Shown here in pieces: positions 52,007-64,000 of a stretch of 64,000 bases of DNA (position 1 is its first letter; each line of letters begins with the position of its first letter). The DNA lies in the NCBI GenBank assembly GCA_963836235.1, contig CAWIIP010000004.1, positions 512,001 through 576,000 on the forward strand. Reading direction: 5' to 3'. The DNA is from an uncultured Pseudomonadota bacterium (GTDB lineage Bacteria; Oederibacteriota; Muellerivitia; Muellerivitales; Muellerivitaceae). Under the pieces are notes generated by a model. It was not told the origin of the DNA and did not search any database. It worked only from the letters and a program-made list of their open reading frames with translations. A program made the position numbers and the translations under genes.

Positions 52007-52043
52007 CGAATAAAAGTTGAACTTTATAAAAAGGTTTAAATGG

Positions 52044-53834
52044 ATGCGCCTGAAAAAAGTTTCCTCTCTTTTGTTTTTAGCCTTTTATGGAATTAGCCTT
52101 CCGGTTTCGGCAAAGGTTTCTAGCCTGGCCGGGAAGGCGGTTTTTGTTCCAGGCGAAATCATTGTTCGATTGAAAGAGGGAGCTACTCCTGGTGATCGGG
52201 CCAAGGCCCTAAACGCTGTGGGAACGGCCCGATCCTTGAAACGTTCTGATTTTTATAAGGTGAAGTTAAAACCGGGAATAGATGTTCCAACCGCCGTGAA
52301 CCAAATGGCAAAAGATCCGTCGGTCCAATATGCCCAACCCAATTACCGCTATTACGCTTTGGGATGTTCTCCGCCAACCGATCAATATTACATATCGCTC
52401 CAAGACTGGCCGTTTCTTAAAATCTCCGCACCGCAGGCGTGGAATTTGTTTGCCATTTGTCCCCCCGGAAGTTCTTCAGTGACGGTGGCGGTTTTGGATT
52501 CGGGTGTTTCCCGTTCCCATCCGGATCTTCTGAATGTTCCGCTGATTGGTTATAACGCCGTCTGTGCTGTTAAGGAACAAGATCCTTCTTCGGTAGTGCC
52601 AGACCCTTCCTGTAGTTCATGCGGTGGGCCAGTCAGCGATTCCGTTTCCGGCCCCGTTACCGCCAGTATGGATGACTTCGGCCATGGTACTTATGTATCG
52701 GGAATTATTGCGGCCAGTTGGGGTACGGCGAATCCCGAGGCTTGTGGCGCCATGATGTCAACGACGGGCATTGCGGGTTTGGCGCCTGGAATCACTCTTC
52801 TGGCGGTTAAAGTTCTCGATTGCACAGGGAGTGGGACTACTGAATCCATAGTGGATGGAATAAATTTTGCAGTTAGCCAGGGGGCGAAAATTTTGAATTT
52901 TTCTCTGGGGTCAGATCCTTCATATGGTTTTGATCCAACGGAAAAAGACGCATTGGATAACGCCATCGCCAATGGATGTGTGATTGTAGCTGCCGCGGGC
53001 AACGAATCCGAGGGTGGAACGTTGGCGCCTCTTGATTTTCCAGCTGCTTATCCACCAGTTCTCTCGGTGGGTGCCACTGGTCCGAATGACGAGGTTGCAT
53101 GTTACTCAAACGGCGGGAGCGGTTTGGACTTGGTGGCGCCAGGCGGTTTAGCCAACGATTGCCAAAAATGCGGCGTCACTTGTTACAATCCTGGCGGTGA
53201 TGTTTTCGGGTCGTTTCTTTGCCCTCTTTCGCCAGCAGCGAATTCTGAAGGTGGATTTTGGCTCCTAGCAAGTGATTATAATTTTGGCACGGCTGCCGGA
53301 ACATCCGCCGCAACACCGTTTGTCTCCGCGACCGCAGCCTTGATCTGGTCCCTTTATCCCAATCTCACCAATAGTCAAGTTGTTCAGGCCATCATCAATA
53401 ACACAGATAGTTTGAATGGCAATCAGGGTTGGGATTCTAAAACCGGTTATGGCCGACTGAATGTTTACAATGCGCTCCTGAATGCGGGGAACGGAAGCGG
53501 CCAAATGACGGATTACGTCCAAACATTTAACAGCCCTAATCCTTTTTATACCGGAATTACCGGGACGACCAATATCACCCTCGCCATTTCCCAGCCGGCG
53601 CCAGTGGAATTAACTATTTTTGATTCCTCGGGAGAGTTGGTTTTTCGCAAGAACTACAATGCTTCCGATCTCAATAACAATCCGTCCAATCCGCAGTTTA
53701 AATCCTATTATCTTTCTTGGGATGGGCGGAATGGGGCAGGGCAAAAAGTCGTGACGGGGATTTATTTTTACAGCGTTAAGGTGAATGGACAAATTGGGAG
53801 AAACAAGATAGCCCTTGTCCAGGGAACGAAATGA
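52044..53834 (+). CDS. Secreted S8 subtilase with FlgD-Ig/T9SS-type C-terminal domain
   Basis: Signal peptide, prodomain, triad LDSG/HGT/GTSAATP, AAAGN; C-terminal SPNPF...IFDSSGELV...WDGRN...GIYFY...K. Start 52017 or 52044. Confidence 0.9.
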   Translation: MRLKKVSSLLFLAFYGISLPVSAKVSSLAGKAVFVPGEIIVRLKEGATPGDRAKALNAVGTARSLKRSDFYKVKLKPGIDVPTAVNQMAKDPSVQYAQPNYRYYALGCSPPTDQYYISLQDWPFLKISAPQAWNLFAICPPGSSSVTVAVLDSGVSRSHPDLLNVPLIGYNAVCAVKEQDPSSVVPDPSCSSCGGPVSDSVSGPVTASMDDFGHGTYVSGIIAASWGTANPEACGAMMSTTGIAGLAPGITLLAVKVLDCTGSGTTESIVDGINFAVSQGAKILNFSLGSDPSYGFDPTEKDALDNAIANGCVIVAAAGNESEGGTLAPLDFPAAYPPVLSVGATGPNDEVACYSNGGSGLDLVAPGGLANDCQKCGVTCYNPGGDVFGSFLCPLSPAANSEGGFWLLASDYNFGTAAGTSAATPFVSATAALIWSLYPNLTNSQVVQAIINNTDSLNGNQGWDSKTGYGRLNVYNALLNAGNGSGQMTDYVQTFNSPNPFYTGITGTTNITLAISQPAPVELTIFDSSGELVFRKNYNASDLNNNPSNPQFKSYYLSWDGRNGAGQKVVTGIYFYSVKVNGQIGRNKIALVQGTK

Positions 53835-54886
53835 GGAATCAAAGTCGAATTCCTCAAGGCTGGGAGACAAAGAAAAACTTTTTTTTAAAAAATTGTTATA
53901 TTGATCTTGGGTCTTTTCTGAAGTTTTGTTGGTCTTTTTGTCGTATAGAAATTAAATTTTGCTTCTTATTCTTTTTTTTGGCTTTGCCGGTTCTGGCGGA
54001 TCAGCAGGGAGGGCAAAGACCCGCGGCCTATTTGGAATATGGAGCGGGTGGGATTGAAAACGCCATGGGCGGGGCCGCCGTCGCCGATCGCAATGATGCA
54101 GCCAATGGATTTTGGAACCCGGCAGGATTAAGCGGCCTCCGAGGGTTTCAGGTGGAGGGCCATAAAACCCTGATGTCGTTGGGCCAGGAACTGGATTACA
54201 TAACTTTCGCCAATGGTTTTCGAGATGCGTTCTTTTACGGACTATCCTGGTTTAATTACAGCGCAGGAGGGGACATCGAGGCAAGGACGGGACCGTCCCT
54301 AGCGCCGGACAGTGTTTTCGGGGATACGGAAATGACTTTCCTGGGTTCGATCGCTTTCAAACTGGATCCCCAATGGGCCCTGGGCTGGAATATCAAAGTG
54401 TTGACCCAAAATTTTAACAACTTTTCCGCTTTTGGCCTGGGTGAGGACCTGGGGATTCAATACCGCGTCACCCAATACACGACCCTGGGTTTCATGATCG
54501 AAGACCCAATCACTTTTTTCAGTTATAACAATTCAATCACTGATTTTATTCCTCCTACTTTTAAGTCAGGTATTTCTCAACGTGATGAGAGGATTAACGC
54601 TAAATTAAATTTTGACCTGGACTGGAGTCCGGATTTAGGGTTAGAACCTCATTTGGGAATTGAGTGGCATCCAGCGGAAGCATTTGCCTTGAGGGGCGGA
54701 TGTTGGGCTGAAAATTTGACGGCTGGAACATCGGGCGGCGCTATTTTGATCAACCCGACAGCTGGTTTTGGGATTTTTGTTCCGATGGGGGACAGCTTAG
54801 TTGAATTGGATTACACGATTCTAACAGATCGTGTTGAACAAGGAAATTTTCTTCATCAGGTTTCGATCACTGGAAAATTTCTTTGA
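53831..54886 (+). CDS. PorV/PorQ-family outer-membrane beta-barrel
   Basis: YLEYGAGGIENAMGGAAVA...FWNPAGL N-terminal motif, amphipathic strands, HQVSITGKF end; start uncertain. Confidence 0.78.
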   Translation: MRNQSRIPQGWETKKNFFLKNCYIDLGSFLKFCWSFCRIEIKFCFLFFFLALPVLADQQGGQRPAAYLEYGAGGIENAMGGAAVADRNDAANGFWNPAGLSGLRGFQVEGHKTLMSLGQELDYITFANGFRDAFFYGLSWFNYSAGGDIEARTGPSLAPDSVFGDTEMTFLGSIAFKLDPQWALGWNIKVLTQNFNNFSAFGLGEDLGIQYRVTQYTTLGFMIEDPITFFSYNNSITDFIPPTFKSGISQRDERINAKLNFDLDWSPDLGLEPHLGIEWHPAEAFALRGGCWAENLTAGTSGGAILINPTAGFGIFVPMGDSLVELDYTILTDRVEQGNFLHQVSITGKFL

Positions 54887-54940
54887 GATGCGTTGTAATT
54901 AACAACCTTTATTCTCTGAGGCGGCTTATGGCGAGGTTCT

Positions 54941-55750
54941 GTGGAAAATCCTGAAACATTAAAATCGCGGCTTGAACTTTGTCGACGTTTAGGTGTCCAA
55001 TATGTTTCTTTGAATGTTTCTGGCGAAGAAGGAACTGCGGATTATTCAACTAGGACGTCTTTTGTCGAATCGGTACCCGGTTTAATTGAAAGTGCGAGCA
55101 ACTCGGATTCTCTTCCTGGGCAAAAGCTTTCCGATATTGATCAGGCTAATCCCAAGTGGCTAACGGCTTTTCCGGACTCGGTCCAAGCCATGGAACTTTT
55201 GGCCTTTAACCGTGACATTTGTGAATGCCAAAACTGTCCTCTGGGTAAAACTCGCCAAAATTTTGTTTTCGGAAGTGGCAGTCCGCGTGCCGAGATAATG
55301 TTTGTGGGAGAGGCTCCGGGTGCGGATGAAGACGCCCAAGGTTTGCCCTTCGTTGGGAAAGCCGGTCAACTTTTGACCAAGATCATTGAATCAACCAAGA
55401 CCTGGAAGCGGTCCGATGTTTTTATATGTAATGTCCTCAAGTGTAGGCCTCCGGGAAACCGGACACCTCAACCGGAAGAAGTGGCACAGTGCCGACCCTA
55501 TTTGGAAGAGCAGATTCGTATTATTAAGCCCAAATTCATCATGGCTCTTGGAGCCAGTGCGGCCCAGGCGCTTTTAGAGACCAAGGATTCGGTTGGGAAA
55601 CTCCGCAACAAGTGGCATGATTTTGCCGGAATTCCCCTTCGTGTGACCTATCACCCGGCTGCCCTTTTAAGGTTTGATGGATATAAAAAGGACGTTTGGG
55701 AGGATATGAAGGAATTGACGGCCAAATATCAGGAATTGACCCACATGTAA
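54941..55750 (+). CDS. Uracil-DNA glycosylase family 4 (Fe-S)
   Basis: [32 protein letters not shown]. Confidence 0.93.
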
Positions 55751-55870
55751 AAATCCACTTTTTGGTGGATTACCGATGCTAAAAATCTGCCTTTTTCGTC
55801 GTTTTGAGCAAATAATCGGTATAATTTCAACAAAATTCCTATGTACCTCCTATTCCAACTACCGGATTAA

Positions 55871-58800
55871 TTGATGAAGTCTTTTAAAATTTTATTTCTG
55901 GCCTCTTTTATCGTTTCTTCTGCTTTTCAAGCTTCCGAGGTTCAAGCCCAGTGTGGCATTTCTTATGATAACAATGAGGCTGTAACCTTCTTGACGGGAA
56001 CAACGGCTACTTTTCCCGTCACGGTTGGAAATTTGGGGAATCGGCTTCTTTTGCTTCAGGTGTCCACAAATAATAGCCCGAATGCCGTGAATGCTACTAC
56101 TACCACTTCCAGTAGAACAGCTAGTTTAACATCGATTGTTACTAATTCTGTTTTTGGTCGAACACTGGAATCCTTATACCTACTTAACCCCGATTCTGGG
56201 CCCAATACAATAACGTTGACCTTAACTAATTCTTCTTTTATTGCGGCCGCGACCAGCTTTGCAGGTGTATCTCAAACTGCTCCGGCACCTTGGAACACCA
56301 ATTTCTCTCGTCAGTCCACGGCGACCCAGGATTTTTCAATTTCTTTGGATACCACCACTCCCGACAGTTGGATCGTGGATCAATTTTTGTGGAATAATGC
56401 GACTATTGGAATTTCCGCATTGGGAGCTGCCCAGATTCAAATGTGGAACTCACCCTTCATAACTCCCAATATCAGCGCCGAAGGTGACTATCTTCCTACC
56501 AGCAGCCCTGGTTTGACAGCCCTTAGCTATTCCCTCACTGCCGCTACCAGCGGAGATTTACAGGCAGTGGAAATACTTCCATTCGTATGTACGCCAACCC
56601 CAACGAACACGTCTACAGATACTTCTACTAATTCGCCTACCGACACGCCGAGCTCGACGGCGACTTTGACTACTACGGATACGACAACCTATACGGCTAC
56701 AGATACGGCGACATTGACAGATACCTTGACTCCCACAGATACACCGACTTTGACCCCGACTTTTACCACTACGTGCACAACTACGGATACGGCCACAAAT
56801 ACTCCAACTTCAACAGCAACCCTTACGCCGACCAATACACCGGTCAATCCTCCGGTGAACATAATCCTGGCGGCAACACCCGTGAACCAGACGGTAATTC
56901 CGGGAATTGAAGGGGTGACGGTTATACAGTTGCAGGTGACCAACAATAGCATGACGGAAGGAGTGTCTTTCTTGTCCATTGTTTTGGGCGGGACCAACCC
57001 GAACGACTCTACCGAAATAGCACAGGTAAATCTTTATGATGAAACGGGACTGGTGACAAGCGGGACATTTAAAACTGCAGGGGCGGTGACGTTGGGGTTG
57101 GCACCCCTGGAAACGTTAGGGATGAGTGGTTCGGCTTCGGCATCGCAAACCTTCGTGGTGACTTATGATTTTTCAAATGCACAATTTGCGGGAACTTACG
57201 GATTGACGTTAGGCTCAGGTAGTTTGACCGGAACAGGTGCTTCGACCGGAAAGCCCATCGCGGTTTCAGGATTGCCATTAGGCGGAGCGCAAATAACAAT
57301 TGAGTTGCCGACATCAACGCCAACTAATACAGCCACGAGTACAACCACAGATACTCCAACAAATACGCCTACGCTTACCAATACAGCGACATTCACACCG
57401 ACGTTTACGGCGACGAATACGGCGACGGCCACGGCGACCGACACAGCCACAAATACGCCAACGAATACGGCGACCTATACGACGACGGATACGCCTACGG
57501 ATACGGCTACCTATACAACCACAGGTACGGCGACATTGACTGATACCTTAACTCCCACAGATACGCCGACTTTGACCACGACTTTGACGCCGACGGCGAC
57601 ACCGCAATCGAAGCTGGTGCTTTCGTGGAATAACGAACCGGCATCACAGAGCTATTTTTACAACCAGGCGAATGTGACGGGAATCCAGGTAGTGCTAAAG
57701 GCGCTTGGACAGGAGCCGGTGTCGGTGAACCAACTGGCTTTTGGGTTGGGAGGAACGCTTTTGAGCGGGGAGGTAGTGGGTGGAAGCGTGGAATTGTATC
57801 CGGATTCAGGGGCGAATGAGGTAGGTGGGGTTTATAACGGAACTGCTAGTCCGACGCCAGTGGCGACGGGAAGCTTTGTTGGCGGAACGGTTACTTTTGC
57901 GGGATTGACGAATTTAAAGGTGAATCCGTCGGGTGCGCCTCAAACCCTGCTGTTGGTGTTTAGCCTCCAAGCCAACGGCGGGGAGACTTTTTACAATACG
58001 ATTAGCGGCTCCTCAATTACGGCGGTGGGTGCGAATACGGGGCTACCGGTATCGGTTTTCGGAACACTGATCAATGGGAATACGCATACGGTGATAGGCC
58101 CTACGGCGACACCGACGTTTACGGCGACGAACACGGCGACGGCCACGGCGACCGACACAGCCACAAATACGCCAACGAATACGGCGACCTATACGACGAC
58201 GGATACGCCTACGGATACGGCTACCTATACAACCACAGGTACGGCGACATTGACTGATACCTTAACTCCCACAGATACGCCGACTTTGACCACGACTTTG
58301 ACGCCGACGGCGACACCGCAATCGAAGCTGGTGCTTTCGTGGAATAACGAACCGGCATCACAGAGCTATTTTTACAACCAGGCGAATGTGACGGGAATCC
58401 AGGTAGTGCTAAAGGCGCTTGGACAGGAGCCGGTGTCGGTGAACCAACTGGCTTTTGGGTTGGGAGGAACGCTTTTGAGCGGGGAGGTAGTGGGTGGAAG
58501 CGTGGAATTGTATCCGGATTCAGGGGCGAATGAGGTAGGTGGGGTTTATAACGGAACTGCTAGTCCGACGCCAGTGGCGACGGGAAGCTTTGTTGGCGGA
58601 ACGGTTACTTTTGCGGGATTGACGAATTTAAAGGTGAATCCGTCGGGTGCGCCTCAAACCCTGCTGTTGGTGTTTAGCCTCCAAGCCAACGGCGGGGAGA
58701 CTTTTTACAATACGATTAGCGGCTCCTCAATTACGGCGGTGGGTGCGAATACGGGGCTACCGGTATCGGTTTTCGGAACACTGATCAATGGGAATACGCA

Positions 58801-61800
58801 TACGGTGATAGGCCCTACGGCGACACCGACGTTTACGGCGACGAACACGGCGACGGCCACGGCGACCGACACAGCCACAAATACGCCAACGAATACGGCG
58901 ACCTATACGACGACGGATACGCCTACGGATACGGCTACCTATACAACCACAGGTACGGCGACATTGACTGATACCTTAACTCCCACAGATACGCCGACTT
59001 TGACCACGACTTTGACGCCGACGGCGACACCGCAATCGAAGCTGGTGCTTTCGTGGAATAACGAACCGGCATCACAGAGCTATTTTTACAACCAGGCGAA
59101 TGTGACGGGAATCCAGGTAGTGCTAAAGGCGCTTGGACAGGAGCCGGTGTCGGTGAACCAACTGGCTTTTGGGTTGGGAGGAACGCTTTTGAGCGGGGAG
59201 GTAGTGGGTGGAAGCGTGGAATTGTATCCGGATTCAGGGGCGAATGAGGTAGGTGGGGTTTATAACGGAACTGCTAGTCCGACGCCAGTGGCGACGGGAA
59301 GCTTTGTTGGCGGAACGGTTACTTTTGCGGGATTGACGAATTTAAAGGTGAATCCGTCGGGTGCGCCTCAAACCCTGCTGTTGGTGTTTAGCCTCCAAGC
59401 CAACGGCGGGGAGACTTTTTACAATACGATTAGCGGCTCCTCAATTACGGCGGTGGGTGCGAATACGGGGCTACCGGTATCGGTTTTCGGAACACTGATC
59501 AATGGGAATACGCATACGGTGATAGGCCCTACGGCGACACCGACGTTTACGGCGACGAATACGGCGACAAATACGGCCACCAGCACTACCACGGATACGT
59601 CAACGAATACGGCGACATTTACGATGACGAACACACCTACGGAAACAGACTCCTACACGCCCACAAACACCGCGAGTGATACCGCCACCGCCACTCCGAC
59701 TGCCACCTATACAACGCCGGATGTACATGTTGGTTTATTTGGCACATTAGGCCCATTAATCCAAATACCCGGAGCTTTCAACATTGCGGACTTGGAAGTA
59801 CTGGTCAGCAATAATAGTACCGAGCCGATAAGCTTGGTCGACATAGTGTTTTCGGCGAATGGACCCGGAAACGCGGGGATAACGCTGGTGAGTTTGTACA
59901 GGGGAGCCGGTGTTGCTGCGGGAAACCTTGCCCAAAGCGGCCCTTATAACGCTAGCAATGTGGTGACATTGGGTGCTCCGCTTCTGGACGAAATTCCAGC
60001 CGGTCAGGCTCAAACCTATACGGCTGCTTTTGACTTTTCGAATACGGCTCCGACAGGGGACTATGCGGCGGTTTTGACAAACTTGCAAGGAGCGGGCGTG
60101 TCATCTACCTTTCCACTTGTAGTTTCAGGACAGCCAGTTACTGGTGTGACGATCACCATCGCTACTCCGACTTTTACCCCGACCAATACGGCCACTAATA
60201 CCGCTACTAATACACCGACCAATACGGCGACGGTCACTGCGACCAAAACGGCAACGAATACCGCAACGAATACGGCAACGAATACAGCGACTAATACGGC
60301 AACGAATACCGCGACTAATACGGCCACAAGTACTGCGACCAACACGGCTACGAATACACCCACAAAAACGACTACCAATACCGCCACGAATACAGCGACT
60401 AATACCACGACGAAAACAACGACGAATACGGCTACGAATACCACCACGTATACCCCGACGAATACAGCTACCAATACTGCGACCTATACGGCCACGAATA
60501 CAACGACGAACACGCCTACGAATACGGCGACCTATACTGAGACCAATACGCCCACAAATACTACGACCGCCACAGCCACGAATACGGCGACAAATACAAC
60601 GACTAGTACGGTGACGAATACGACTACTGTTACCCCGACCAACACGGCCACAGACACAGCGACCAATACGGCTACCAGCACAGCTACTGCCACAACCACA
60701 CAAACTACCACTAGTACGGCTACGAACACGCCTACGGCGACTGACACGCCCTGGCCCGCGTCCCGTTTGGCTTTTGTTTCCACGCCCGTTCCTACGTTTA
60801 TTGCCGGAATCAGTTCCGGCCCGATGACGGTTGAAATCCAGAACAGTTCTGGTGCGGGGGCCACATTAAATGCCCCCATGACGATTAACTTGTCCTCCAA
60901 TTCGACGGGCGAGAACCTGTTTTCACAAACATTGGGCGGCAATCCGGATGGCAACTTTGTAGTCCAGCCCTTCTCAACTCCAGTGATCAGTTTCTATTAC
61001 CTGGATTACAAAGCTGGAAATTGGACTGCCACGGCATCGAGTCCTTCCGGTATCACTCCGTCCACTCTTTCGATGCCCGTGTCTACGGGGGCGCTATCCC
61101 AATTGCAAGTGCTGTTGCCGGGGGAAACCGCCTATCCCGGCTGGCCCACACCCGATCCATTGGGAAAAACAGGCGCTCCCAGCATTCAAACTTCAGGGAA
61201 TCCTTTCCCGGTGGTGGTGAACGCAGTGGATGCCTATTTCAATGTCATTTCGATTTCCAACCAGATTGCCTTGACGTCTACAGGCGCCCTATCCCAGGGA
61301 TCTTTTACATTGGCGGCCGGTACCTGGCCTGAGCCAGTGACTCTTTTCTCGCCTTTAAGTCAAACCTTACAGGCTACTGACTTGTCGGTTAGTGGCATTA
61401 CGGGTATTAGTTCACCAGTTTCTCTACTGCCTGGTTCCCGAAGCAATTTCTTGAACGTGGTCCATCTTTCGCCGACCCTCTCGACTGCCGTCTTGGGACA
61501 AGCCGGGGTCAACCTTTTGGTACTTCAATTCACCCCTAATGGGACGGATGAGGTGGAGCTTACGAATTTACAACTTCACGCAAAAGACGGTAACGGTACC
61601 GACATCCCAATTAATAGCGCCTTCCAGGATCTATCGATGGTCGGCAAGAACGCCAGTGGAGTAACCGTTTATTCCCAAGCGGTGTCCTCGGTTAATTTAG
61701 CCACCGTCACTTTGGGACCAATTCCTCCCGGGACTTTTATGAGCTCTTTTACCAGTCCTCCTGGCAGCCTGTCTGTGACGGTGGAAGCGAATATTTCCTC

Positions 61801-62245
61801 TTCTGCTAGCGCAAAAGACATCCAAATTTTTGTGGATAACGCGGGGTCCATTTCCGATCTGGATACCTATCCCCCCACCTTCTCGCTTCCAGTATCCGCC
61901 CAAGGCGACCCAACCGGGTTTCCCATGTCCTCCAATCTTTTGTTGATCCGCTCTGCCGACGTGGCAAGCACCTATGGCAATTATCCGAATCCATTCCACC
62001 CTGAGACCGGAAATACTACCATCGAGTTCAACTTGGCGACCCCTTCGATTTATTCCCTGGTCATTTATGATGTTCTTGGAAGGAAAGTAAAATCCTTTGA
62101 AACGAACACGCCTCAGTCAGGGCTTCAACAATTATCATGGAATGGGAAGAATGACGCCGGAACACCTGTCCTGAGCGGTGTTTACTACGCTCAATTGAAC
62201 ACGGGTGGGAGTAAATATCTCCTAAAAATAGCGGTGGTGTATTGA
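55871..62245 (+). CDS. Large secreted Thr-rich repetitive surface protein with FlgD-Ig/T9SS-type C-terminal domain
   Basis: Sec signal (VQA-Q), beta-rich domains separated by TNTATNT/TPT linkers, C-terminal NYPNPF...IYDVLGRKV...WNGKN...SGVYY...K. Confidence 0.9.
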   Translation: MMKSFKILFLASFIVSSAFQASEVQAQCGISYDNNEAVTFLTGTTATFPVTVGNLGNRLLLLQVSTNNSPNAVNATTTTSSRTASLTSIVTNSVFGRTLESLYLLNPDSGPNTITLTLTNSSFIAAATSFAGVSQTAPAPWNTNFSRQSTATQDFSISLDTTTPDSWIVDQFLWNNATIGISALGAAQIQMWNSPFITPNISAEGDYLPTSSPGLTALSYSLTAATSGDLQAVEILPFVCTPTPTNTSTDTSTNSPTDTPSSTATLTTTDTTTYTATDTATLTDTLTPTDTPTLTPTFTTTCTTTDTATNTPTSTATLTPTNTPVNPPVNIILAATPVNQTVIPGIEGVTVIQLQVTNNSMTEGVSFLSIVLGGTNPNDSTEIAQVNLYDETGLVTSGTFKTAGAVTLGLAPLETLGMSGSASASQTFVVTYDFSNAQFAGTYGLTLGSGSLTGTGASTGKPIAVSGLPLGGAQITIELPTSTPTNTATSTTTDTPTNTPTLTNTATFTPTFTATNTATATATDTATNTPTNTATYTTTDTPTDTATYTTTGTATLTDTLTPTDTPTLTTTLTPTATPQSKLVLSWNNEPASQSYFYNQANVTGIQVVLKALGQEPVSVNQLAFGLGGTLLSGEVVGGSVELYPDSGANEVGGVYNGTASPTPVATGSFVGGTVTFAGLTNLKVNPSGAPQTLLLVFSLQANGGETFYNTISGSSITAVGANTGLPVSVFGTLINGNTHTVIGPTATPTFTATNTATATATDTATNTPTNTATYTTTDTPTDTATYTTTGTATLTDTLTPTDTPTLTTTLTPTATPQSKLVLSWNNEPASQSYFYNQANVTGIQVVLKALGQEPVSVNQLAFGLGGTLLSGEVVGGSVELYPDSGANEVGGVYNGTASPTPVATGSFVGGTVTFAGLTNLKVNPSGAPQTLLLVFSLQANGGETFYNTISGSSITAVGANTGLPVSVFGTLINGNTHTVIGPTATPTFTATNTATATATDTATNTPTNTATYTTTDTPTDTATYTTTGTATLTDTLTPTDTPTLTTTLTPTATPQSKLVLSWNNEPASQSYFYNQANVTGIQVVLKALGQEPVSVNQLAFGLGGTLLSGEVVGGSVELYPDSGANEVGGVYNGTASPTPVATGSFVGGTVTFAGLTNLKVNPSGAPQTLLLVFSLQANGGETFYNTISGSSITAVGANTGLPVSVFGTLINGNTHTVIGPTATPTFTATNTATNTATSTTTDTSTNTATFTMTNTPTETDSYTPTNTASDTATATPTATYTTPDVHVGLFGTLGPLIQIPGAFNIADLEVLVSNNSTEPISLVDIVFSANGPGNAGITLVSLYRGAGVAAGNLAQSGPYNASNVVTLGAPLLDEIPAGQAQTYTAAFDFSNTAPTGDYAAVLTNLQGAGVSSTFPLVVSGQPVTGVTITIATPTFTPTNTATNTATNTPTNTATVTATKTATNTATNTATNTATNTATNTATNTATSTATNTATNTPTKTTTNTATNTATNTTTKTTTNTATNTTTYTPTNTATNTATYTATNTTTNTPTNTATYTETNTPTNTTTATATNTATNTTTSTVTNTTTVTPTNTATDTATNTATSTATATTTQTTTSTATNTPTATDTPWPASRLAFVSTPVPTFIAGISSGPMTVEIQNSSGAGATLNAPMTINLSSNSTGENLFSQTLGGNPDGNFVVQPFSTPVISFYYLDYKAGNWTATASSPSGITPSTLSMPVSTGALSQLQVLLPGETAYPGWPTPDPLGKTGAPSIQTSGNPFPVVVNAVDAYFNVISISNQIALTSTGALSQGSFTLAAGTWPEPVTLFSPLSQTLQATDLSVSGITGISSPVSLLPGSRSNFLNVVHLSPTLSTAVLGQAGVNLLVLQFTPNGTDEVELTNLQLHAKDGNGTDIPINSAFQDLSMVGKNASGVTVYSQAVSSVNLATVTLGPIPPGTFMSSFTSPPGSLSVTVEANISSSASAKDIQIFVDNAGSISDLDTYPPTFSLPVSAQGDPTGFPMSSNLLLIRSADVASTYGNYPNPFHPETGNTTIEFNLATPSIYSLVIYDVLGRKVKSFETNTPQSGLQQLSWNGKNDAGTPVLSGVYYAQLNTGGSKYLLKIAVVY
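57395..59568 (+). repeat. Three near-identical 714-bp (238-aa) tandem repeats plus a ~32-bp partial copy
   Basis: ATCGAAGCTGGTGCTTTCG recurs at 57607, 58321 and 59035; units start at 57395, 58109 and 58823. Confidence 0.95.
60160..60750 (+). repeat. Low-complexity Thr-Asn-Thr-Ala coding repeat
   Basis: About 190 codons of degenerate 12-bp units encoding TNTA/TNTP with varied synonymous codons. Confidence 0.85.
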
Positions 62246-63933
62246 TGATTCACGGTTACCTCACAGCCCCAACGGATATTCGGCCCAAGGCATTCCGAGG
62301 AGGTCTCGGGATCTTATTTTTAGGAATAGCCACGTTCGCAATGGTTTCATTAGCCGGGGCTCAAGTCTTGAGTACGGGGGGGACCGAATCCCCATTTGAG
62401 TTGGGGGGATCGGCTTGGTCCCTGGGGATGGGCGGGGCTGTGGCGGCGGTCTCGGGTTATGGGGACAGTTTTTTTGAGAATCCGGCAGCCTTAGCAACGG
62501 TTCAGGAACATGAAATTCTCACCTTTCACGCTCCTTTATTCCTCGATACTCTTTATGATTCCGTCGGTTATATCCATCCTATCGGAGCGAACAATAGCTT
62601 CGGTCTGGCTGTAACCCGATTGGGGACTTCGGGAATCTTTCAAACTCAAAATAACATTGAAGCCATTTCCACCTTTTCTTCCGAGGAGTATGAAGGGCTT
62701 TTGAGTTATGGGTTTCGCCTTTGGCCTGATTTGGATTTGGGGGCTTCGGTAAAATACATCTTTGAGCAATTATTGACTTATCAGGGAAGCGGCGCGGGGT
62801 TGGATTTGGGTCTTCTTTACCATTTTTCAAGAAGCCACGCGGATTTTAACCAGGTTGGATTCCGGAATATCACTCTGGGGTTCTCGGTTTCCAATGTTCT
62901 CCAACCGCAAACCAAACTTTTCCAGGTCGCGGATAACCCGGCTCGTGTTTTTCGCCCCGCCTTTTCTTACTATTATCAATTCCCGGGATCCCGAAACGAT
63001 TTTTGGGTGATGGCGGAAGGTGAATTTCCCTATAGCGGTGAAAAGCTCGTTAAGGCGGGTCTTCAATATGGGTGGAACAATACCGTTTTCGTCCGGACCG
63101 GATTTGACGGGACGGGACCCACGGCAGGCGCAGGGATAAAGCTTTATGATTTCGAGTTCGATTACGCCTACGACCAGCAGGATTTGGGGGCTTTGAACCA
63201 GTTTTCGCTGACTTACCGATTCGGGCGTTATGTAGACCCGCTTCAGGCTCAAAAAATTGATCTCTTGAAATGGGTAGCCCAAAGCTATTCCAAGGACAAC
63301 GATTTTGATCCAGCCATCAAAGCTTGGCAAAATGTATTGAGGGAATTTCCGGACGACACGGAAGCTCCGCAGGCCATCAAGGATCTTCAGCACCAGCGTA
63401 AAAATCTGGTTCAGGACCAGCTTCAGATGGCGCGGTCGGCCATGAGCCGGGGAGATTATGAGAAGGCATTGCCCTTGATCGCCAAGGTTTTGAGCTTGGA
63501 TCCCGGTAATCCGGATGCCAAGAAGCTCTTAAGCCAAATTGATAAAAAGACCTTGGTTTCCACCAATTATACACGCGGGGTGGAAGCTTACAGCCGTGAG
63601 GATTACGGACTGGCGATTCAATATTTGGAAATGGTCTACGAAGTGGATTCCCATTACCGGGATGTCAATTATCTTTACCACGACGCGCAAAGCCATTATC
63701 TTCCCTTGGAATCCATGCCCAAGGAATTAACCGAGCTTTATGCCCAGGGAGTGAATTACTATATGGGCGGAGATTATCGGAAAGCCATCGATGCTTGGGA
63801 ACAAGTGCTGAACAAGAGTCCTAAAAACTTCCTCGTTCGTCGCAATATTGAGGATGCCAGAAGACGTGTGAATGATAAGGCTGTTCCGGAAGATACTTCT
63901 ACTGAAAATCAGGAGCTTAAAAACAAACCATGA
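62245..63933 (+). CDS. PorV-like beta-barrel fused to C-terminal TPR repeats
   Basis: PFELGGSAWSLGMGGA...FENPAAL, barrel end NQFSLTYRF, then TPR-like helices (AWQNVL, VLSLDPGN, AWEQVLNKSP); start 62242 or 62245. Confidence 0.78.
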   Translation: MIHGYLTAPTDIRPKAFRGGLGILFLGIATFAMVSLAGAQVLSTGGTESPFELGGSAWSLGMGGAVAAVSGYGDSFFENPAALATVQEHEILTFHAPLFLDTLYDSVGYIHPIGANNSFGLAVTRLGTSGIFQTQNNIEAISTFSSEEYEGLLSYGFRLWPDLDLGASVKYIFEQLLTYQGSGAGLDLGLLYHFSRSHADFNQVGFRNITLGFSVSNVLQPQTKLFQVADNPARVFRPAFSYYYQFPGSRNDFWVMAEGEFPYSGEKLVKAGLQYGWNNTVFVRTGFDGTGPTAGAGIKLYDFEFDYAYDQQDLGALNQFSLTYRFGRYVDPLQAQKIDLLKWVAQSYSKDNDFDPAIKAWQNVLREFPDDTEAPQAIKDLQHQRKNLVQDQLQMARSAMSRGDYEKALPLIAKVLSLDPGNPDAKKLLSQIDKKTLVSTNYTRGVEAYSREDYGLAIQYLEMVYEVDSHYRDVNYLYHDAQSHYLPLESMPKELTELYAQGVNYYMGGDYRKAIDAWEQVLNKSPKNFLVRRNIEDARRRVNDKAVPEDTSTENQELKNKP

Positions 63934-64000
63934 ACTTGTCCCCCCTCCTTTACCGTATTCTTTCCCGCCTTCCCTTTGAGCCTAGACGAAGGCTTTACCG
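63930..64000 (+). CDS. 5' end (partial) of next gene, unknown function
   Basis: ATGA overlap; frame is open to the window end (MNLSPLLYRILSRLPFEPRRRLY). Confidence 0.5.
   Translation, partial: MNLSPLLYRILSRLPFEPRRRLY

Follow-up and report, generated by a model that had tools for sequence, protein, structure and literature searches.

Two secreted proteins paired with PorV-family barrels point to a type IX secretion-like system outside the FCB group

Introduction

At one end of a 64,000-nucleotide stretch of contig CAWIIP010000004.1 (assembly GCA_963836235.1; hereafter the window), two genes for secreted proteins with a common type of C-terminal tail are each followed by a gene for a different PorV-like outer-membrane barrel, which raises the question of whether barrels related to type IX secretion systems (T9SS) can act as private carriers of single proteins in a lineage other than Bacteroidota. 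In Flavobacterium johnsoniae, a single PorV serves all type A tails (PMC12618676). According to a 2024 paper, no T9SS genes occur beyond the phyla of the Fibrobacterota-Chlorobiota-Bacteroidota (FCB) group (PMC11285876), and in a 2025 model the T9SS descends from the gliding machinery of Bacteroidota because its translocon needs a moving track (PMC12635249). An earlier note on this DNA, made from the sequence alone, described the two pairs and proposed that the tailed proteins have dedicated PorV paralogues, in a lineage outside Bacteroidota and perhaps without the canonical motor. We confirm the observation and find the interpretation partly supported.

Results

Two cargo-barrel pairs in the window

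The earlier note had read Sec-type signals and one tail type in both cargo proteins and a different PorV-like barrel behind each, and had suggested profile searches for the tail and for the PorV/PorQ families; both families were matched, and the reading stood for all four genes (Table 1). The subtilase of pair 1, whose likely start is the ATG at 52044, comprises a signal peptide, a prodomain, an S8 domain with all catalytic motifs in place (D161/H223/N329/S430) and a C-terminal type A/FlgD-like tail at about 53502-53831. This C-terminus scores 29 bits against FlgD_ig (cut-off 27; Pfam profile search), with a CHU_C match barely over its cut-off beside it, and the tail is kept in homologous loci. 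The barrel 1 gene follows with an ATGA overlap of stop and start at 53831, as the note had described. In barrel 1 the hydrophobic signal stretch starts only some 43 residues downstream of the overlapping ATG, which leaves both its true start and its translational coupling to the subtilase uncertain. Among the homologues of barrel 1, a tail gene lies upstream in 29 of 30 loci, the remaining locus ending at a contig end, and barrel 1 is likely the private carrier or anchor of the protease.

The 2124-aa protein of pair 2 has a signal peptide, beta-rich domains on Thr/Pro-rich linkers and a C-terminal type A tail (61949-62242) matched by TIGR04183. Five segments of its body were searched and returned no family at E 0.05; the final 300 residues and the tail are conserved among relatives, and we predict a surface adhesin or sensor. 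Its orthologues vary in length from about 1300 to 2600 aa, and the 714-bp triplicate within its gene reflects either a recent expansion or an assembly artefact.

The gene for barrel 2 (62242-63933) overlaps that of the 2124-aa protein through a TGATG at 62243, again as the note had described, and its product reaches 91.2 bits against NF033709 (cut-off 90). A structure model of barrel 2 (pLDDT 89, 14 strands, N-terminal plug) had PorV as its top match in two structure searches: 8gl6_F (template modelling (TM) score 0.80, E 8e-12) and 6h3i_F (Z 30.9, root-mean-square deviation (rmsd) 3.6, 278 residues aligned). FadL ranked second (TM 0.70; Z 28.5, rmsd 2.8, 261 aligned). A tail gene lies upstream of the barrel 2 homologue in 29 of 29 loci. 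Barrel 2 also carries a C-terminal tetratricopeptide repeat (TPR) tail that the earlier note did not mention; it contains invariant columns (Y172-A211 in alignment A6) and, from the topology of the barrel, would be periplasmic. In a genome of the same genus (L073 / L112) the barrel 2 orthologue is frameshifted within this tail, possibly through a sequencing error. The uracil-DNA glycosylase gene between the two pairs is not regarded as part of the export system.

Table 1. Coordinates of the features at the cargo-barrel locus, as positions in the window
Feature	Positions	Strand	Evidence
Secreted subtilase, cargo of pair 1	52017..53834	+	Peptidase_S8 E 1.8e-47; FlgD_ig over cut-off; catalytic motifs
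PorV-family outer-membrane barrel 1, without periplasmic tail	53831..54886	+	NF033709 67.3 bits; PorQ and PorV2 models next
Family-4 uracil-DNA glycosylase, between the pairs	54941..55750	+	TIGR00758 196 bits (cut-off 125)
2124-aa secreted protein, cargo of pair 2	55871..62245	+	TIGR04183 43.6 bits (over cut-off 23)
Tandem repeat in the 2124-aa gene, three identical 714-bp copies	57419..59559	+	Period 714, zero mismatches between copies
PorV-family barrel 2: signal peptide and 14-stranded barrel with N-terminal plug	62242..63225	+	NF033709; fold model
C-terminal TPR tail of barrel 2	63226..63933	+	TPR families (Pfam); last repeat most conserved
Start of 800-aa inner-membrane protein gene	63930..64000, continues past window	+	4-base overlap with barrel 2

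Tail-then-barrel order is not chance

The source genome (3.97 Mb, 5 contigs, completeness 99.4%) holds many such barrels. NF033709 gave 25 matches in 21 genes, 16 of them over the cut-off (barrel 2 included, barrel 1 not), and an iterated barrel profile found 23 PorV-like genes, two of which NF033709 did not see and which may belong to another family. These paralogues are bare or bear TPR, FN3, FlgD or OmpA tails. A tail profile (best reversed control E 0.88) located 117 terminal tails among 3251 called genes; judged by a hydrophobicity heuristic, 103 of them belong to proteins that have a signal-like stretch. Four of the 117 are periplasmic domains of membrane anti-sigma factors, which leaves 113 cargo-like proteins; 102 of these have Thr-rich linkers, and they reach 4454 aa and include proteases and carbohydrate-binding modules on Thr/Pro linkers, which is an extracellular design.

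A tail gene stands directly upstream and on the same strand for 14 of the 23 PorV-like genes (13 cargo, 1 anti-sigma factor) and directly downstream for 2 of 23, against a background of 76 in 3218 other genes. In four other families, among the matches listed, a tail gene occupies position -1 of 81 of 122 barrels and position +1 of 12 of 122. This sample, from four genomes, covered 100 of 103 regions around 121 of 124 listed matches, out of 143 matches in all; the match search over five genomes had 47 matches outside the listing, and the fifth genome was left out of the pairing count. Both pairs are conserved down to about 30% barrel identity. Pairing of tail and barrel in this order is not chance, contrary to the random adjacency that the earlier note had weighed against its own proposal.

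Paired and unpaired tails also differ in sequence: the paired ones are singletons (median nearest neighbour 36%, n=13), whereas the unpaired ones form families (58%, n=100). Moreover, tail type tracks barrel type. Across 94 pairs, and in comparisons without detectable homology of the cargo bodies (some of which are incomplete), the tail of the nearest barrel was the best-matching tail in 33 of 93 comparisons between genomes (5.4 expected) and in 18 of 80 within genomes (4.7 expected). Most of the 113 cargo-like proteins, about 100, lack a neighbouring barrel, and private barrels thus serve a minority of the cargo; the idea of dedicated PorV paralogues may hold for the conserved, non-random pairs and does not extend to most tailed proteins.

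A SprA-like translocon, with neither motor nor sortase found

A genome-wide inventory, which the earlier note had also proposed, extends its remark that the window has no porK/L/M/N, sprA or porU gene. A 2028-aa SprA-like protein with a signal peptide and a C-terminal Phe is encoded on another contig. Although its sequence alone had no match in the PDB, a profile of 21 orthologues matched F. johnsoniae SprA and nothing else there (E 4e-50), and a model of its last 1189 residues (840-2028), a long beta-sheet, matched SprA at E 1.8e-32, with the next family at 3e-5. The protein occurs in 92 of 99 genomes of the phylum and in 58 of 60 near-complete ones. The SprA profile also matched five genomes labelled Zixibacteria, Elusimicrobiota (2), Spirochaetia and Calditrichaeota. 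The SprA-like protein carries an N-terminal FN3-like stretch, and a gene for an FN3-rich tail protein comes next in 15 of 21 loci; in the source genome this neighbour is a 1545-aa protein with a terminal tail (L001:2873-7507, minus strand), a candidate dedicated translocon partner or plug.

GldK, GldL, GldM and GldN gave no match in the genome, by profile searches that had no true positive control and that remote homologues may escape; we therefore say only that they were not found. The GldK, GldL and GldM searches caught weak look-alikes in control genomes and nothing here at E 0.1. Across the phylum, and likewise without positive control, GldN was found in 0 of 99 genomes, GldM_4th in 0 of 60 and GldL in 0 of 45, and GldN was also not found in the five differently labelled genomes that the SprA profile matched. 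PorU (C25, PF01364) was not found in this genome or in any of 30 others of its family; C25 matches in 8 of 99 genomes of the phylum, none of this family, serve as a positive control for that search. PorP/SprF (PF11751) was not found in the genome and matched in 5 of 45 genomes of the phylum. As candidates for a substitute motor we considered five MotA/ExbB genes and rejected them, for they lie in flagellar, TonB-receptor or Tol-like contexts and none is near sprA or a barrel; the neighbours of sprA in 21 loci include no conserved motor candidate. Given that PorU and the motor were not found, we regard the system as a T9SS-like variant and not as a canonical T9SS.

The lineage lies outside the FCB group

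The earlier note had proposed placement by groEL, and GroEL was identified; the placement given here relies on record labels and database kinship. The alignment of paralogous barrels was too diverged for a scan of the sequence collection, and barrel 2 orthologues were used as the query instead; the result hangs on one peptide pattern. Records with barrel 2 homologues 51-61% identical include five labelled candidate division FCPU426, and more distant ones carry the labels Goldiibacteriota, Firestonebacteria, Elusimicrobiota, Zixibacteria and others; some close records have uninformative or conflicting labels. FCPU426 corresponds to Goldbacteria, with Firestonebacteria and Elusimicrobia as the nearest phyla (PMC7031533), and NCBI taxonomy places FCPU426 and Goldiibacteriota outside the FCB group. 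The labels and the taxonomy bear out the earlier note on this point, and an FCB member with an ordinary complete T9SS, the outcome it had set against its proposal, is not what we find.

Pair 2 heads a conserved signalling operon

Pair 2 forms the front of a conserved signalling operon, whose next gene begins 71 bases before the window ends and encodes an 800-aa protein. This protein is composed of an RsbW-like kinase, two membrane helices (residues 177-195 and 338-356) flanking an sCache-like domain, a HAMP domain and a SpoIIE phosphatase. Pfam matches are HATPase_c_2, HAMP and SpoIIE, and sCache_3_2 is weak here (E 1.4e-4) and reaches 5.9e-15 in an orthologue. A STAS gene (Pfam STAS) and then a TPR gene follow. 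In 29 of 29 loci, and in one Zixibacteria-labelled record as well, the gene right after barrel 2 encodes a homologue of the N-terminal half of this protein, of the form RsbW-sCache-HAMP(-SpoIIE), and related sensor domains occur in proteins of about 460-470 aa adjoining other PorV-like barrels.

All six barrels of the genome that carry TPR-only tails lie at signalling loci (ECF sigma/anti-sigma factors at four, a histidine kinase at one and RsbW-SpoIIE at one). In the four other families, a same-strand signalling gene lies at most two genes away for 10 of 24 TPR-tailed barrels versus 4 of 98 other barrels. The link between TPR tail and signalling is enriched, not general, and the orthologues behind it are not independent; the proposition that every TPR-tailed barrel is a transducer is weakened by these 10 of 24. 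A predicted complex of the TPR tail with the sensor domain gave weak support, with a score of 0.43 versus 0.08 for the best of three controls, at least 82% of contacts shared between runs and partner pLDDT of at least 82. Of 157 solved pairs 116 pass the mark applied, and of 215 mismatched pairs 2 pass it; the passes at scores of 0.60 or below comprise only 18 solved pairs and both mismatches.

Discussion

Proposed mechanism and the evidence against it

The genes, their domains, their order and its conservation, the SprA and PorV homologies and the failure to find GldKLMN, PorU and PorP/SprF are observations, and from them we infer what goes beyond gene content and homology. Our preferred explanation, to which we give a little better than an even chance, is a motor-less and sortase-less T9SS-like variant in which a SprA-like protein exports the cargo, a cognate barrel captures and anchors it, and a TPR-tailed barrel relays a signal inward. 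By analogy with Bacteroidota, tail proteins would be exported by Sec and then enter the SprA-like pore, where barrel loops would recognise the tail, each adjacent PorV-family barrel would collect its own neighbour, and the barrel-cargo complex would leave SprA laterally. The binding of tail to barrel would be cognate. Since no PorU sortase was found, the tail would stay uncut and the barrel would become a permanent one-to-one anchor, much as PorQ is for PorZ or SprF-like barrels are for type B cargo. One or a few orphan barrels would serve the roughly 100 cargo proteins that lack a partner, and release from the pore would be spontaneous or depend on some other energiser. Pair 1 would display a protease on the surface. 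In pair 2, the 2124-aa protein would act as surface adhesin or sensor, the barrel's TPR tail would make contact with the sCache-like domain, and the RsbW/SpoIIE fusion, in a partner-switching module, would be the switch for a STAS anti-anti-sigma factor.

Several results weigh against this explanation. Some homologies are weak: the subtilase tail scores 19.1 bits against TIGR04183 (cut-off 23), barrel 1 scores 67.3 bits against NF033709 (PorV_fam; cut-off 90), and the lead of PorV over FadL in fold comparison is modest (Z 30.9 vs 28.5). The SprA-like protein reaches 112 bits (E 5.7e-33) against TIGR04189, under the cut-off of 200, and its model is partial (pTM 0.47, TM 0.40, rmsd 18 A); as it falls under its own cut-off, a diverged motor could equally be missed. 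In F. johnsoniae, the complex of carrier and substrate comes off SprA only with energy from the motor (PMC10994853), and our searches of this genome found no energiser for that release. The tail-like fold is also periplasmic in four anti-sigma factors and some barrel tails, so it is not always an export signal. Singleton tails and tail-barrel tracking can also stem from age, physical linkage and common descent, and the kin and orthologues in the pairing counts are not independent. As to signalling, in other families a gene of that kind is missing from the two genes to either side for 14 of the 24 TPR-tailed barrels, and in this genome two barrels without TPR have a gene for an adenylate cyclase or for a cNMP-binding regulator nearby. 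A pass as weak as that of the TPR-sensor complex is, going by the counts of the tool itself, oftener wrong than right unless the complex is likely beforehand.

Alternative explanations

The strongest competitor, which we judge unlikely though to be taken seriously, accepts export and anchoring and treats the barrels as an interchangeable pool, adjacency serving co-expression and inheritance and the TPR tail being structural or a chaperone. PorV binds type A tails through plastic hydrophobic contacts (PMC12618676); the many cargo proteins without a neighbouring barrel fit a pool, as do the TPR-tailed barrels without signalling neighbours, and linkage alone could produce the tail-barrel tracking. 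A generic shuttle is hard to square, however, with 21-54 PorV-like matches per genome, with a strict -1 order in five families, with paired tails that are distinct singletons and with the linkage of barrel 2 to its sensor in 29 of 29 loci.

Less probable still is that private carriers work here within an energised T9SS of the ordinary kind, the motor and hub of which lie too far from profiles trained on Bacteroidota to be recognised. That SprA itself falls under the curated cut-off in 85 of the 92 matching genomes of the phylum (7 are over it) lends this some weight, as do Gld searches lacking a true positive control and the energy requirement for release in F. johnsoniae (PMC10994853). Yet the searches for GldK, GldL and GldM caught weak look-alikes in control genomes and nothing here, the phylum-wide counts for GldN, GldM_4th and GldL are zero, no conserved motor-like gene accompanies sprA in 21 loci, and barrel 2 has no cysteine, which the SprF-type disulfide link requires (PMC12635249).

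We consider it quite improbable that the tail proteins are periplasmic or reach the surface by another route, with the FlgD-like domain as a periplasmic docking module and the pairs as envelope scaffolds. Membrane anti-sigma factors do contain FlgD-like domains, and some barrel tails have them next to OmpA domains, but a SprA homologue conserved in 92 of 99 genomes argues against this, as do the size and extracellular design of the cargo. Finally, it is very improbable that the barrels have nothing to do with the tails and are uptake channels of the FadL/UPF0164 type, importing what the neighbouring enzymes produce. In favour of this, FadL is the second-best fold match, Toluene_X and UPF0164 match weakly, and in Treponema pallidum the annotation of five UPF0164 proteins, which are PorV/FadL-like, is that of possible fatty-acid transporters (PMC13749626). 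Against it, PorV comes first by both sequence and fold, Toluene_X stays at 20.2 bits under its cut-off of 29.7, and the upstream genes have a tail in common, not an enzyme class, with tail type tracking barrel type.

Relation to known systems

The one-to-one arrangement that we propose resembles type B cargo with PorP/SprF shuttles (SprB-SprF, Fjoh_3952-Fjoh_3951), in which the cargo gene precedes that of its own barrel, orphan cargo probably share orphan barrels and cargo likely stays bound (PMC12618676). Here, in contrast, the tails are type A/FlgD-like, the barrels belong to the PorV/PorQ family and PF11751 was not found in the genome. In the attachment complex of Porphyromonas gingivalis (PorQ-PorZ, PorV-PorU), a PorV-family barrel likewise retains at the surface a partner whose tail stays uncleaved, and PorQ is already known as a dedicated PorV paralogue for one such tail, that of PorZ (PMC10947112). 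The present genome differs in having 21-23 barrels rather than two, many of them with periplasmic TPR, FN3, FlgD or OmpA tails, and in that PorU/C25 was not found in the genome or family.

With the SprA/Sov and GldKLMN/PorKLMN system (PMC10994853, PMC12635249), the variant has in common a SprA homologue by profile and fold, PorV carriers and type A tails. It differs in that GldK, L, M and N were not found, in its lineage outside FCB, and in the FN3-like stretch of the SprA-like protein with its FN3-rich neighbour. Closer in gene content is the set of an 'Incertae sedis' Bacteroidetes class, with Sov, PorV and PorQ and without PorK, L, M and N; that set retains PorU and PorZ, lies within Bacteroidetes sensu lato and, in the parts of the source consulted, has no reported expansion of paired barrels (PMC7323717). 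Signalling has a counterpart in the P. gingivalis PorA-PorV-PorY/PorX-SigP pathway, where a PorV-bound surface tail protein affects an inner-membrane sensor and a sigma factor, and where the link between PorV-bound PorA and PorY is an open question (PMC7712824). Unlike in that pathway, the barrel here has a TPR tail, and the sensor (an RsbW/SpoIIE fusion, a kinase or an anti-sigma factor) is encoded in the same operon.

Among top-ranked literature results, with subscription journals and supplements outside the search, we found no description of a T9SS in FCPU426, Goldbacteria, Firestonebacteria or Elusimicrobiota, and the consulted parts of PMC12419801 and PMC8542988 hold nothing on the present system; public annotation pipelines may already name these proteins. 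More tentatively, and with rather less confidence than in the variant itself, we suggest that a SprA-PorV-tail module without the gliding-derived energy chain, widespread outside FCB, is an older core of the T9SS, that dozens of private PorV barrels form a surface address code and that TPR-tailed barrels are a new class of outer-membrane transducer, linking a sensor protein held at the surface with kinases, phosphatases or anti-sigma factors. If a whole phylum has a SprA-PorV-tail set and no detectable track, the module of translocon and carrier would be seen to exist alone and may have arisen so, and so minimal a system would make the energy question testable. Paired barrels would break the rule of one PorV for all type A tails, a TPR-tailed barrel is a tangible candidate for the connection still missing between a surface protein held by PorV and a sensor in the inner membrane, and orthogonal tail-barrel pairs could serve surface display.

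Further PorV-like barrel loci

Other loci show further arrangements of these genes. Four loci (L002, L003, L004 and L005) each bring together genes for an ECF sigma factor, for a membrane anti-sigma factor that ends in an FlgD domain resembling the tails, for a tail protein and for a PorV barrel; these barrels combine a Pro-rich linker and a short beta-strand motif common to them with a TPR tail that is likewise short. At L007:5762-7960 and L017:3509-5863, FlgD-like domains and peptidoglycan-binding OmpA domains are joined to PorV-like barrels, an architecture that is common in other families and would pin the cargo to the wall. A duplicated two-gene unit (L018:3323-7764) combines a secreted protein without known identity and a divergent barrel that NF033709 does not see. 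Two tandem PorV-like barrels stand in a flagellar cluster just before flgF/flgG/flgA (L011:4978-8686), an order repeated in L193 and L259, and at L160:9362-12757 (minus strand) the gene after a TPR-tailed PorV-like barrel encodes a protein of 581 aa that has the middle and C-terminal domains of FliG.

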